Source of the DNA: Escherichia coli
Lineage (GTDB): Bacteria; Pseudomonadota; Gammaproteobacteria; Enterobacterales; Enterobacteriaceae
Assembly (NCBI RefSeq): GCF_017348835.2
Contig: NZ_CP071375.1
Direction: 5' to 3' (one strand)
Length of the DNA stretch: 64,000 bases
The notes beneath the pieces are model-generated. The model was not told where the DNA came from. It ran no database searches and saw only the letters and a program-made list of their open reading frames with translations. Numbering within the stretch: position 1 is the first letter of the stretch; each line of letters begins with the position of its first letter. A program made the position numbers and the translations under genes. This document shows positions 26,699 to 33,133 of the stretch, one piece after another.

Positions 26699-28204
26699 AT
26701 GGAAACCAAAGATCTGATTGTGATAGGGGGCGGCATCAATGGTGCTGGTATCGCGGCAGACGCCGCTGGACGCGGTTTATCCGTGCTGATGCTGGAGGCG
26801 CAGGATCTCGCTTGCGCGACCTCTTCCGCCAGTTCAAAACTCATTCACGGTGGCCTGCGCTACCTTGAGCACTATGAATTCCGCCTGGTCAGCGAGGCGC
26901 TGGCTGAACGTGAAGTGCTGCTGAAAATGGCCCCGCATATCGCCTTCCCGATGCGTTTTCGCCTGCCGCATCGTCCGCATCTGCGCCCGGCGTGGATGAT
27001 TCGGATTGGTCTGTTTATGTACGATCATCTGGGTAAACGCACCAGCCTGCCGGGATCAACCGGTTTGCGTTTTGGCGCAAATTCAGTGTTAAAACCGGAA
27101 ATTAAGCGCGGATTCGAATATTCCGACTGTTGGGTAGACGATGCCCGTCTGGTGCTCGCCAACGCCCAGATGGTGGTGCGTAAAGGCGGCGAAGTGCTTA
27201 CTCGTACTCGTGCTACTTCTGCTCGTCGCGAAAACGGCCTGTGGATTGTGGAAGCGGAAGATATCGATACCGGCAAAAAATATAGCTGGCAAGCGCGCGG
27301 CCTGGTTAACGCCACCGGCCCGTGGGTGAAACAGTTCTTCGACGACGGGATGCATCTGCCTTCGCCTTATGGCATTCGCCTGATCAAAGGCAGCCATATT
27401 GTGGTGCCGCGCGTGCATACCCAAAAGCAGGCCTACATTCTGCAAAACGAAGATAAACGCATTGTGTTCGTGATCCCGTGGATGGACGAGTTTTCCATCA
27501 TCGGCACCACCGATGTGGAATACAAAGGTGATCCGAAAGCAGTGAAGATTGAAGAGAGTGAAATCAATTACCTGCTGAAAGTGTATAACGCGCACTTTAA
27601 AAAACAACTTAGCCGTGACGATATCGTCTGGACCTACTCCGGTGTGCGTCCGCTGTGTGATGATGAGTCCGACTCGCCGCAGGCTATTACCCGTGATTAC
27701 ACCCTTGATATCCATGATGAAAACGGCAAAGCACCGCTGCTGTCGGTATTCGGCGGTAAGTTGACCACCTACCGCAAACTGGCGGAACATGCGCTGGAAA
27801 AACTGACGCCGTATTATCAGGGCATTGGCCCGGCATGGACGAAAGAGAGCGTGCTGCCGGGTGGTGCCATTGAAGGCGACCGCGACGATTACGCAGCTCG
27901 TCTGCGCCGTCGCTATCCATTCCTGACTGAATCGCTGGCGCGTCATTACGCACGCACTTACGGCAGCAACAGCGAGCTGCTGCTCGGCAATGCGGGGGCG
28001 ATAAGCGACCTCGGGGAGGATTTCGGTCATGAGTTCTACGAAGCGGAACTGAAATACCTGGTGGATCACGAATGGGTCCGCCGCGCCGACGATGCCCTGT
28101 GGCGTCGCACAAAACAAGGCATGTGGCTGAATGCGGATCAACAATCTCGTGTGAGTCAGTGGCTGGTGGAATATACGCAGCAGAAGTTGTCGCTGGCGTC
28201 GTAA
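26699..28204 (+). CDS. glpD: Aerobic glycerol-3-phosphate dehydrogenase
   Basis: Trimmed to METKDLIVIGGGINGAGIAADAAGRG (FAD-binding GxGxxG); 501 aa. Confidence 0.92.
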   Translation: METKDLIVIGGGINGAGIAADAAGRGLSVLMLEAQDLACATSSASSKLIHGGLRYLEHYEFRLVSEALAEREVLLKMAPHIAFPMRFRLPHRPHLRPAWMIRIGLFMYDHLGKRTSLPGSTGLRFGANSVLKPEIKRGFEYSDCWVDDARLVLANAQMVVRKGGEVLTRTRATSARRENGLWIVEAEDIDTGKKYSWQARGLVNATGPWVKQFFDDGMHLPSPYGIRLIKGSHIVVPRVHTQKQAYILQNEDKRIVFVIPWMDEFSIIGTTDVEYKGDPKAVKIEESEINYLLKVYNAHFKKQLSRDDIVWTYSGVRPLCDDESDSPQAITRDYTLDIHDENGKAPLLSVFGGKLTTYRKLAEHALEKLTPYYQGIGPAWTKESVLPGGAIEGDRDDYAARLRRRYPFLTESLARHYARTYGSNSELLLGNAGAISDLGEDFGHEFYEAELKYLVDHEWVRRADDALWRRTKQGMWLNADQQSRVSQWLVEYTQQKLSLAS

Positions 28205-28267
28205 ATTAACGTAAGGTGATCAGGTCAGATTTCAATCTGGCCTGAGACTGATGACAAACACAAAATT

Positions 28268-28365
28268 GCCTGATGCGCTACGCTTATCAGGCCTACGTGG
28301 TTTATGCAATATATTGAATTTGCATGATTTTGTAGGCCTGAGAAGGCGTTCACGCCGCATCAGGC
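28268..28365. repeat. BIME-like pair of REP elements downstream of glpD
   Basis: gcctgatgcgctacgcttatcaggcctac (28268-28296) and gtaggcctgagaaggcgttcacgccgcatcaggc (28332-28365). Confidence 0.65.
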
Positions 28366-28417
28366 ATGAACAACGTGCACTTTGTCAACAATCTGACCTA
28401 CTTTTTGAGTCAGAGAA

Positions 28418-29020
28418 TTACCGTAAAGCCCACGCCATCATACCCAACGTAACAAAACTCAGGCACGTTCCCCACTCACTCCACTTCCGTATCTGGCTTC
28501 TATTTTTGCTACGCCACTGGCAATAATATCCCAACGCAAAACCAAGCTGTGCGCTTATTGGACCGATAAAATCCGTCCACGGCTGAGGCCAAAATGGCGA
28601 AAAATTCAGGGGTAGCCAGACAACAAGCAGAAAGAAATTGCGGATACTTTCCAGCAACGCAATTTTCGCTGGCGCGATGTAAAAAATGATATTCCAGAGG
28701 ATCAACCATAAATAGACCGGTGCGAATACCAACCAACAATGGAGCCTGCTTTTCAATTCAGATTGAGTTCTACGAGTAAATTGCCAACCGACACAACATA
28801 TTACACAGAAAAAAAGCGCATATTCAGCCGATAACCAAAGTTGTAATTGCAGAAGTGAAATACGCCTGATCATGAGCGAGATTGAGAACAGCATTTCCCC
28901 CAGAAAACTCAGCGTGATAATACAAGCAGCCAGTGCAACCACCGTCGGCCACACCAACAACGGTACAATAACAAAGCCGAGAAATAACGGATAAATATAA
29001 AGTCTGATTATATTCATCAT
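28418..29020 (-). CDS. Small polytopic membrane protein, function unknown
   Basis: 200 aa, hydrophobic throughout (5-6 predicted TM segments); start overlaps the stop of the upstream gene (TAATG). Confidence 0.6.
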   Translation of the reverse strand: MMNIIRLYIYPLFLGFVIVPLLVWPTVVALAACIITLSFLGEMLFSISLMIRRISLLQLQLWLSAEYALFFCVICCVGWQFTRRTQSELKSRLHCWLVFAPVYLWLILWNIIFYIAPAKIALLESIRNFFLLVVWLPLNFSPFWPQPWTDFIGPISAQLGFALGYYCQWRSKNRSQIRKWSEWGTCLSFVTLGMMAWALR

Positions 29021-30552
29021 TATTGTCCTGATGATTCGGGGGATGCTTCATACAGCGGCACATACCCCACATCCTCTACCAACTGTTGCCCCTGCGGACT
29101 TAAAAACCAGTCAACAAATTTCTGCGTTTCCGGCGTGGCATTTTCACGCGTCACCATAAATGCATCGACGATGTACGCATATTTGCCGTTGCGAATGTTT
29201 TCCGCCGTCGGTGTAATATCGTTAATCGCTAGCAATTTTATATTTTTATCAGCATTCATTTGCGTCGCGTAATAGCGGAAGGTATAGCCTATTGCGTTGT
29301 TTGTATTACGATATTCGGCAACGACTTTAATCATTCCCTCCATTACGCTTGCCACTTCGGTTTCCTGCGGCGAGATCATACGGACATTTTTCATGACCTG
29401 TGATTGCATCACCGTCTGGCTGCCAGAGTCTTCCGGGCGTTGCCAGGTCTGGATCTCCTGATCGTTACCGTCAACAGTACGCCAGTTGGTAATTGCACCA
29501 CTGAAAATGTCACGCACCTGTTGTTCAGTCAGAGAATTAACCGGATTATCCGCATTGACGATGAAAACGAATGCTTCACGGGCAAATGGCGTGTATAGCA
29601 AAGTGACGCCCGATTCCTCTGCGCGTTTTTTCTGCCCACCGGAGGGTTGCGCCACAAAAATAATATCGGCATCACCTTTAACAATCCGGTTATATGCATC
29701 GGGGGTACGAGAGTTCTCCAGATATTCCCAGATGTGGAAATCTTCCGGTATAACGCTCAACGCATAAAAGGCAGAGGCATAAATTGGGTACGCCGCCGTA
29801 GCACCATCGAGTCGCGGCCAGTTTTGCGTAAACTGAATTTGCGGTTTACCACGCAGTGGTGTCAGTTGATTATTGAGTTTATCGGGTCGCCAGGCCCAGG
29901 TATCAATATTTTCACGGACACCGACGCCGGGATTAAGCTGTTTATATAAATAAGCCTGGTAACCGGCGACAAAACCAAGCATGAGAAGGATAAACAAGAG
30001 GGAATTACGGCAACGTAACCCGGACGTGCCCGTTAAAAGATGTCTGGTCGGCCAACCGTACCCCAGCGAAAAACTGATATGCGCGCCAACGGGTATAATG
30101 ACTATCCACCAGTACTCACCACCAACTAATGAGACTAACAAAACACCCAGCCAGGGAAGCATAAGATCAGCCAACCAACCCGATCCCATCTGGCGAAATT
30201 GATAATCTGCCAGATGCAGCGCGATTATCCAGCCAATCAGGGTTAATAGTGCGGGTAAGAGAAAAAAGCATTGTCGCCAGGCGGCTATTTCTCTTTTTTC
30301 TGGTGCACTATCGCCCGCCCATACTCGCCCCGAGAAAAATAGCATTATCGCACCCAGCGCCAACATAAAAATGTTAAGCAGAAGGTAAATTGTTGGCGTG
30401 AAGAGTAAATTGCAAACTTCAAGAATGGCGGCAAGCCCGCCCCCCAGCATAGCAACAACCGCTGCCAAAAATTGCGTCAGTATGGGGAGGCCGAAAAAAG
30501 TCATTACCAGCGAGGACAAAATCCATTTTCTGTTTTGCATTATTCTTTCCAT
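29020..30552 (-). CDS. Polytopic membrane domain fused to a PstS-like (phosphate-binding, PBP type 2) periplasmic domain
   Basis: 510 aa; N-terminal ~200 aa hydrophobic; C-terminal region has PstS-like motifs LDGATAAYPIY, RPEDSGSQTVM, NAIGYTFRYYA, KFVDWFLSPQG; likely the intact form of what K-12 keeps as the yzgL remnant. Confidence 0.65.
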   Translation of the reverse strand: MERIMQNRKWILSSLVMTFFGLPILTQFLAAVVAMLGGGLAAILEVCNLLFTPTIYLLLNIFMLALGAIMLFFSGRVWAGDSAPEKREIAAWRQCFFLLPALLTLIGWIIALHLADYQFRQMGSGWLADLMLPWLGVLLVSLVGGEYWWIVIIPVGAHISFSLGYGWPTRHLLTGTSGLRCRNSLLFILLMLGFVAGYQAYLYKQLNPGVGVRENIDTWAWRPDKLNNQLTPLRGKPQIQFTQNWPRLDGATAAYPIYASAFYALSVIPEDFHIWEYLENSRTPDAYNRIVKGDADIIFVAQPSGGQKKRAEESGVTLLYTPFAREAFVFIVNADNPVNSLTEQQVRDIFSGAITNWRTVDGNDQEIQTWQRPEDSGSQTVMQSQVMKNVRMISPQETEVASVMEGMIKVVAEYRNTNNAIGYTFRYYATQMNADKNIKLLAINDITPTAENIRNGKYAYIVDAFMVTRENATPETQKFVDWFLSPQGQQLVEDVGYVPLYEASPESSGQ

Positions 30553-30623
30553 TCTTTCTGAATGGCGAAATTATACTCCCCGAGTCCCCTTGCCCCTTCT
30601 GGACACTTTTCCGAAATGATGGC

Positions 30624-30651
30624 GAAAAAAACGGGACCCTTTGGCCCCGTT
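30624..30651 (-). terminator. Rho-independent terminator downstream of glgP
   Basis: Minus strand: GC-rich hairpin (aacggg...cccgtt) followed by T7. Confidence 0.6.
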
Positions 30652-30667
30652 CTATTTATTGGTGAAA

Positions 30668-33133
<2,466 letters not shown>

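Follow-up and report, generated by a model that had tools for sequence, protein, structure and literature searches.

The closest described relatives of the protein treated here are PstS, the substrate-binding component of PstSCAB (TIGR02136/TIGR00975; PDB codes 4gd5, 4omb and 1twy), and the lipid-anchored forms of PstS, i.e., PstS-1 and PstS-3 of Mycobacterium tuberculosis and lipoproteins of Gram-positive bacteria, which hold a phosphate-binding domain at the outer face of the cytoplasmic membrane. Here we describe a relative of these proteins that is encoded between glgP and glpD in a 64,000-nucleotide stretch of an Escherichia coli genome (contig NZ_CP071375.1; the window), where two genes are read from the minus strand. 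Gene 1 (29020–30552) codes for a transmembrane domain (TMD) followed by a PstS-type periplasmic-binding-protein (PBP) domain, an architecture denoted TMD-PBP below, and gene 2 (28418–29020) codes for a polytopic protein of 200 amino acids (aa) that is, as judged by profile and structure comparison, a free-standing paralogue of the membrane domain of gene 1. Compared with PstS, the gene 1 product has a 206-residue polytopic domain instead of a signal peptide, scores below the curated family cut-off, has altered residues at the equivalents of Asp56 and Ser38, and carries extra invariant motifs; furthermore, neither pstCAB nor a Pho box is found nearby. We tentatively propose that TMD-PBP is a membrane-tethered periplasmic oxyanion receptor that would act through its own membrane domain in ATP-independent uptake or gating. 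Comparison with other strains shows the window form to be a deletion-derived allele of a variable glgP–glpD accessory locus of Escherichia.

That the two genes exist is known from earlier annotation. Over 2.5 kb the region matches E. coli strain PE164 with 100% identity, and for PE164 RefSeq lists gene 1 as WP_122986156.1 (507 aa, 'PstS family phosphate ABC transporter substrate-binding protein') and gene 2 as WP_122986155.1 (200 aa, hypothetical); both proteins are uncharacterised, as a first-pass annotation made from the sequence alone had said. The novelty lies in recognizing that the membrane domain constitutes a distinct, unnamed family and that gene 2 encodes a stand-alone paralogue of it, in the mosaic history of this allele, and in the exact nature of the K-12 pseudogene yzgL. 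TMD-PBP is present in about 60% of complete E. coli genomes and in many Salmonella and Klebsiella genomes, where pipelines label it as the phosphate-binding protein of an ATP-binding cassette (ABC) transporter, a label at odds with the lack of an ABC partner and of a Pho box, the different N-terminus and the sub-threshold family score. That the gene has gone unstudied is due to K-12, in which a 74-codon stub is all that is left.

Domain architecture and distribution of TMD-PBP

The C-terminal half of gene 1 contains a type-2 periplasmic-binding-protein fold (PBP_like_2 domain) at residues 248–500 (29053–29811, minus strand), for which PstS chains are the top structural and sequence matches. 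The AlphaFold2 (AF2) model of the protein has a predicted local distance difference test score (pLDDT) of 86, rising above 90 over most of the binding domain, and together with hydropathy and the PBP fold match it agrees with the first-pass description of a polytopic N-terminal half joined to a PstS-like C-terminal half. At the centre of the comparison with PstS is the motif QRPEDSGSQ (residues 371–379; 29416–29442, minus strand), defined by homologue alignment, in which Q371, R372, P373, S376, S378 and Q379 are invariant in 77 of 77 homologues and G377 is kept in 76. Q371-R372-P373 and S376-G377-S378-Q379 correspond to the anion-binding residues R135 and S139-G140-T141 of PstS. The phosphate-coordinating set compared was T10, F11, S38, D56, R135, S139, G140 and T141, read from the E. 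coli PstS sequence, the numbering of which agrees with the published ligand residues. T252 and T283 are kept in 75 of the 77 homologues, and T10 of PstS aligns to A254 or T252 depending on the register. Further invariant motifs of the binding domain are GY-x-FR-x-Y (422–428), E326 and Y414.

The N-terminal membrane domain comprises residues 1–206 (29935–30552, minus strand), as delimited by AF2, hydropathy and conservation, and has six helices in the AF2 model and five hydropathy peaks. Its conserved residues are P23, G75, R93, W108, P133, W148, P154 and Q199; residues 1–240 match nothing in Pfam or NCBIfam, and an internal 3+3 repeat is not significant (hhalign score 27, comparable with shuffled controls). 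A linker of about 40 residues (207–247; 29812–29934, minus strand; AF2 and conservation) leads from the last helix to the binding domain, and it is mostly unstructured in the AF2 model and contains conserved E214, P223 and an LTPL motif. Gene 1 has no signal peptide of an exported soluble protein or lipoprotein, its N-terminus being the membrane domain, and no cytoplasmic output domain, since the protein ends with the PBP domain and its cytoplasmic loops have at most 20 residues. Over 77 homologues, lysine plus arginine amount to 9.3 on the N-terminus, loop 2–3 and loop 5–6, versus 0.9 on the remaining loops, a distribution that favours a cytoplasmic N-terminus, five net crossings and a periplasmic binding domain. 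A periplasmic location of the binding domain is suggested also by its 60%-identical paralogue of 330 aa (PBP330), which bears a lipoprotein signal peptide with the lipobox LLAGC.

TMD-PBP is a small, self-contained family, and its full-length members, about 500 aa long, are found in Escherichia, Salmonella, Klebsiella, Intestinirhabdus, Phytobacter, Leclercia, Budviciaceae and Brachymonas. The gene occupies the same glgP–glpD position in Salmonella and K. oxytoca; in Jinshanibacter, Brachymonas and two other lineages it stands alone among unrelated neighbours, and one distant homologue sits between the core genes ruvB and rpmE. The link to glycerol-3-phosphate and glycogen metabolism implied by the first-pass annotation is positional only, homologues outside Enterobacteriaceae being located elsewhere. 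No ABC permease or ATPase, kinase or recurrent partner lies near TMD-PBP in E. coli, Salmonella, Klebsiella, Jinshanibacter, Brachymonas and two further lineages, and the flanks of nine loci contain no ABC genes, be it pstC, pstA, pstB or others. Since no ABC, kinase or output gene accompanies TMD-PBP in any lineage, we infer that the protein would act through its own membrane domain.

Mosaic origin of the window form and nature of yzgL

As the first-pass annotation had it, the window holds two intact, overlapping minus-strand genes, gene 1 ending and gene 2 starting in a shared TAATG. The gene 1 open reading frame (ORF), delimited from the ORF list, RefSeq and direct reading, gives 510 aa at most (ATG at 30552), 507 aa if begun at the ATA that RefSeq uses (30543), and 506 aa if begun at the ATG at 30540; the last is the likeliest start on sequence grounds, with the Shine-Dalgarno-like site GGAAAG (30545–30550, minus strand; direct reading) just before it. 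Between E. coli alleles both genes have dN/dS values of 0.10–0.21, i.e., they are under purifying selection and are therefore real genes and not chance ORFs.

Gene 1 is composed of three parts: codons 1–465 come from the TMD-PBP gene, codons ~468–501 from a lipoprotein PBP paralogue, and the last nine from a gene for a 255-aa protein. Recombination between the TMD-PBP gene and the lipoprotein PBP paralogue next to it has replaced the last 44 codons of the former, and a third gene has supplied the very end; aligned with three-gene strains, the window shows a deletion of 1003 bp. Informative sites place the crossover at gene nucleotides 1395–1404 (codons 465–468; 29149–29158, minus strand) as a clean switch, with sites of the TMD-PBP gene upstream and of the lipoprotein PBP paralogue downstream, and they assign 29050–29148 (minus strand) to the 3′-terminal part of the gene for the 330-aa lipoprotein PBP. 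The last nine codons and the stop (29020–29049, minus strand) encode EASPESSGQ; their source is the end of the 255-aa gene, which reads DASSESSGH, and the junction between the PBP segment and this tail lies at a TATGTGCC microhomology.

The first-pass annotation took the locus to be the ancestral intact form. This is not upheld, because gene 1 is a mosaic produced by at least two deletions and its exact arrangement is found in 3 of 5426 complete genomes, whereas a full-length TMD-PBP gene in other arrangements is present in 3340 (~60%), O157:H7 and BL21(DE3) included; the lipoprotein PBP gene occurs in 888. The three carriers are pig isolates, i.e., PE164 and F2_81 (100% identity) and Res13-Sevr-PER07-33 (95%, both ORFs intact). 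The glgP–glpD interval of E. coli is organized in at least six ways: TMD-PBP with the 330-aa lipoprotein PBP and 200-aa TMD genes (O157:H7, BL21); TMD-PBP with the 255-aa gene and a 201-aa TMD gene; TMD-PBP, frameshifted in the examined example, with genes for 236-aa, 255-aa and 201-aa (TMD) proteins; these 236-aa, 255-aa and 201-aa genes beside a fimbrial operon, without TMD-PBP; the K-12 stub; and the window form. In strain A4 (L006:5720-7609) the fimbrial operon adjoins the 236/255/201-aa genes on the glgP-facing side, as it does in EV36 and 2012C-4502; no TMD-PBP gene is detectable in these three strains, in which glgP lies beyond the stretch viewed.

The pseudogene yzgL (b3427) of K-12 lies at the same locus and shares its first 74 codons, which specify membrane helices 1–2, with the TMD-PBP gene; it differs in being a deletion product that keeps these two helices only, after which about 20 codons are read out of frame from the final 60 nucleotides of the TMD-only (200-aa) gene. 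K-12 lacks window positions 28478–30322, and the stub shares 98% identity with the allele found in strain 2014C-3655. The first-pass annotation was right that yzgL is the only fragment left in K-12 and that it aligns to this locus, but the fragment corresponds to membrane helices and not to the solute-binding part. The locus thus exemplifies how tandem paralogues and microhomology deletions give rise to in-frame hybrid genes and eventually to pseudogenes such as yzgL. A 181-aa gene in Salmonella (L007:7564-8109) is another in-frame deletion hybrid when compared with K. oxytoca (L008:7838-8958): residues 1–44 belong to the 234/236-aa family, whereas the remainder is derived from a YbbD_head lipoprotein and is 69% identical to a Klebsiella 139-aa gene.

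Synonymous divergence (dS) between the E. coli alleles of both genes is 0.2–0.7 (window 28418–30552 versus L003, L004 and L006), far above the usual within-species core-genome divergence, while dN/dS remains 0.1–0.2. High dS, in the presence of selection as indicated by dN/dS, points to glgP–glpD alleles that are either old and balanced or repeatedly imported from other Escherichia species.

The stand-alone membrane domain, neighbouring genes and locus boundaries

Gene 2 is a 200-aa polytopic protein, as first described, without a Pfam, PDB or PADLOC match, and its close homologues are restricted to Escherichia. Its AF2 helix pattern matches that of the gene 1 membrane domain. Pairwise BLASTP of the gene 1 N-terminal domain against gene 2 is not significant (E 0.13); profile alignment by hhalign is collinear over the full length, with a probability of 97–98%, E 1e-11 and a score of 77, compared with 19 for reversed and 27–48 for block-shuffled controls. 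A profile of the N-terminal domain, built without gene 2 relatives, finds the W_200-family protein P0142 over its full length (E 4.7e-4) and a bridging protein, P0267 (E 2.8e-10). Foldseek comparison of gene 2 with the TMDs of 'PstS family' proteins yields TM-scores of 0.60–0.72, and MAFFT alignment reveals motifs common to gene 2 and the N-terminal domain, VP(L/I)L in helix 1 and P-x-(G/S)-A-Q-x-x-F-x-L-G-Y in helix 5. These comparisons identify gene 2 as a paralogue of gene 1's own TMD and not, as in the earlier view, as a dedicated membrane partner of gene 1. It is normally located after the 255-aa gene and is kept in strains without TMD-PBP.

Searched against 1.84 billion cluster representatives, the N-terminal domain profile retrieves 141 proteins, mostly fusions of 470–540 aa and some stand-alone proteins of 180–215 aa. 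A TMD-only gene is present at ≥80% coverage in 3829 of the 5426 complete E. coli genomes, and stand-alone TMDs are found in unrelated bacteria as well. Because TMD-only genes persist in strains without the PBP gene, the membrane domain is, by this distribution, an autonomous module and not just an anchor. The native upstream neighbour of the TMD-only gene is the 255-aa gene, whose product is cytoplasmic-looking. Proteins of 255–278 aa without Pfam match or signal peptide directly precede the TMD-only gene at L023:121-1499, L004:1458-2833 and L006:3458-4833. In the unrelated metagenomic contig L023 the pair recurs with overlapping genes at 50% and 36% identity, which suggests that the 255-aa and TMD-only proteins form a two-protein module. 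Pfam and NCBIfam return nothing on the 255-aa and 236-aa cassette genes. A 'Rosetta-stone' argument, in which coupling of the PBP and TMD genes in three-gene strains would indicate cooperation, was considered and rejected, since the PBP tail and junction come from the 255-aa gene.

At the glgP–glpD position of an enterobacterial genome or metagenome (L012:5001-6868), a 207-aa TMD-only gene, the second-best stand-alone match to the N-terminal domain profile, is followed by ORFs of 166 aa and 140 aa, neither of which has a Pfam hit. The AlphaFold database entry A0A1X3IUT8 (E. coli TA447, 679 aa) is an apparent read-through of a PBP gene into a TMD-only gene, and in P0013 (685 aa) the N-terminus of an AI-2E transporter (PF01594) is joined to TMD-PBP from about residue 45; both fusions could be real rearrangements or assembly artefacts.

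Downstream of TMD-PBP in Klebsiella and Salmonella lie genes with YbbD_head and a faint DUF4279 hit; the E. coli 236-aa protein (hyp236) does not match DUF4279. In Salmonella enterica (GCA_049351835.1; L026, 1383–16181), a same-strand array of small ORFs extends over about 15 kb beside a Peptidase_U32 gene, and it includes two lipoprotein PstS-like PBPs (318 and 330 aa), an Ntox34 fragment, a Peptidase_M91 (HExxH) fragment, a HEAT_2 protein and several small lipoproteins. This array looks like an orphan toxin/immunity island.

The flanks of the window locus are those first described, i.e., the repetitive extragenic palindromic (REP) cluster of glpD and the terminator of glgP. On direct reading the end of glpD is at 28204, and beyond it lie two REP units in inverted orientation, which form the downstream boundary between glpD and gene 2 (28225–28400; direct reading, Rfam and multi-copy BLAST matches). 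Inside this pair lie an Rfam match to the REP-derived ES036 (CssrF; 28289–28331, minus strand; 43.6 bits versus a gathering score of 37.6) and a sub-threshold match to naRNA4 (28335–28371, plus strand). In line with REP, the locus as a BLAST query matches at a median of 21 places in each genome. On the upstream side, glgP stops at 30668, after which a hairpin of −17.1 kcal/mol (z −3.7) and a U run constitute an intrinsic terminator (30625–30653, minus strand); it is absent from the output of the promoter/terminator scan and was established by folding. A TATAAT −10-like hexamer without a good −35 element was read directly at 30570–30575 (minus strand), and no complete promoter upstream of gene 1 was found in the promoter scan.

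Proposed function and comparison with known systems

In the proposed mechanism, which we hold tentatively, the membrane domain would lie in the inner membrane with the N-terminus in the cytoplasm and the binding domain facing the periplasm. The ligand would be a small oxyanion, probably phosphate itself or a phosphate-like or phosphorylated compound, and the binding domain would close on it through contacts with Arg372, the Ser376-Gly377-Ser378 motif, Thr252 and Thr283. Once ligand is bound, the domain could act on the membrane domain to which it is fused, perhaps in a homo-oligomer or in concert with the TMD paralogue, and the result would be a binding-protein-dependent, ATP-independent uptake or gating device and not a component of PstSCAB. 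The sensor or non-ABC uptake role suggested at first pass may hold. If the TMD is indeed a translocator or gate, phosphate-like anions would be taken up or sensed by a binding-protein-dependent route that is new.

Several observations weigh against this proposal. The TIGR02136 score of gene 1 is 128.6 bits, under the curated cut-off of 206.6 (the 330-aa lipoprotein paralogue scores 119.1 bits); with an invariant anion motif and a score below the cut-off, the domain has a PstS-like fold and probably an oxyanion ligand, but is not a certified PstS. Examination of the pocket for phosphate-coordinating residues, suggested at first pass, finds R372 and S376-G377-S378 conserved, but the equivalent of PstS Asp56 is Gln302 (Glu in 7 of 77 homologues) and that of Ser38 is Pro284, beside T283, for which reason the ligand may be other than phosphate. 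No conserved charged intramembrane residues are present in the TMD, the six helices of the AF2 model clash with the five crossings required for a cytoplasmic N-terminus and an external PBP domain, and no Pho box is found upstream in nine loci, the best matches being no better than shuffled sequence. The overlap of genes 1 and 2 is, from the junction mapping, a deletion scar and no evidence of partnership: the adjacency of the two genes is a product of deletions and the junction is inherited from the 255-aa gene, so that it is uninformative on cooperation. In general, gene adjacency and start/stop overlap are not proof of functional partnership. Furthermore, the window allele carries G361D (G in 76 of 76 others), G445D (G in 73 of 76) and P459A (P in 75 of 76), the codons of which start approximately at 29471, 29219 and 29177 and which are present in neither parental paralogue, and seven more genomes have the same crossover with the C-terminus lost. 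Because of these three substitutions at near-invariant positions and the chimeric C-terminus, function may be weakened in the window allele.

An unlikely alternative to this receptor is that TMD-PBP is a tethered PstS paralogue that hands phosphate to the housekeeping PstCAB or another existing transporter, with the membrane domain a mere anchor, like the lipid on PstS of Gram-positive bacteria and mycobacteria, and gene 2 unrelated cargo. The top matches to PstS chains, the invariant Arg/Ser-Gly-Ser motif, the PstS-family name given by the annotation pipeline PGAP and the absence of transporter genes of its own nearby all fit such a role, and bacteria with multiple PstS paralogues are well known. 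However, a conserved domain of five to six helices that has invariant residues particular to it and paralogues that stand alone far exceeds an anchor, for which a plain lipoprotein modification suffices in the sister paralogue, and the sub-cut-off score, the lost Asp56 equivalent and the missing Pho box also speak against it. Loss of function, in turn, would make the window genes a decaying remnant, in which ORFs stayed open by chance after in-frame deletions, the function of the family is lost in this strain, and the locus is a step towards K-12 yzgL. The assembly of the ORF by two successive deletions, the three substitutions (invariant or near-invariant positions among 76 homologues), the truncated relatives with the same junction, the weak promoter, and the commonness of frameshifted alleles and of total loss are in keeping with decay; nevertheless, both frames are intact across 2.1 kb, the crossover is in frame within a conserved stretch and keeps the full PBP fold at the AF2 confidence given above, and the 95%-identical second allele also has both ORFs intact. 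We regard this explanation as quite unlikely.

The variability of the locus raises a further and rather improbable explanation, that the glgP–glpD island is a conflict-system cassette for envelope immunity or defence, in which PBP-like and TMD proteins guard the periplasm and inner membrane from a toxin or phage. Hypervariable, cassette-like organization and the high dS between alleles are in keeping with such an island. The lipoprotein PBPs of the Salmonella array, which are 57–63% identical to the gene 1 PBP domain, lie among Ntox34 and Peptidase_M91 effector fragments, a HEAT protein and small lipoproteins, and of the YbbD_head and faint DUF4279 matches downstream of TMD-PBP in Klebsiella and Salmonella, DUF4279 has been reported as an immunity family (PMC9424270, PMC13304343). 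PADLOC, however, returns no family for either protein at E values up to 0.1, the E. coli locus has no toxin gene, and hyp236 is without a DUF4279 match; moreover, the ligand pocket is invariant over distant taxa, unlike fast-evolving immunity proteins, dN/dS is low, and distant TMD-PBP homologues are single genes among core genes. The tethered oxyanion receptor acting through its membrane domain can also be extended, speculatively and with considerable doubt, to the TMD as founder of a class of small membrane modules, new as such, whose soluble partner is either a fused PstS-like receptor or the translationally coupled 255-aa cytoplasmic protein; in Enterobacterales and some Betaproteobacteria, phosphate-like anions would then be transported or gated by TMD-PBP as a so far unrecognized, ATP-independent, binding-protein-dependent system made of a single polypeptide.

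Among known systems with related parts, sensors with PBP domains (kinases, GGDEF proteins and chemoreceptors) differ from gene 1 in possessing a cytoplasmic output domain. ABC importers with fused substrate-binding domains, i.e., OpuA and GlnPQ, likewise have a binding domain covalently linked to a polytopic membrane domain; however, the membrane domain of gene 1 is unmatched to ABC permease families, the order is TMD, long linker and binding domain, and there is no ATPase gene nearby. The tripartite ATP-independent periplasmic (TRAP) system DctPQM and the tripartite tricarboxylate transporter TctABC set a precedent for a binding protein that feeds a non-ABC membrane component, but the binding protein of gene 1 is PstS-type and not of the DctP or TctC type, and its membrane part is much smaller (5–6 helices) and has no sequence or fold similarity to theirs. 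The lipid-anchored PstS proteins offer a likeness in the placement of the binding domain at the membrane, and the 330-aa paralogue of O157 and BL21, with its lipobox, is exactly of this type; the tether of gene 1, by contrast, is a conserved multi-helix domain that also exists free-standing.

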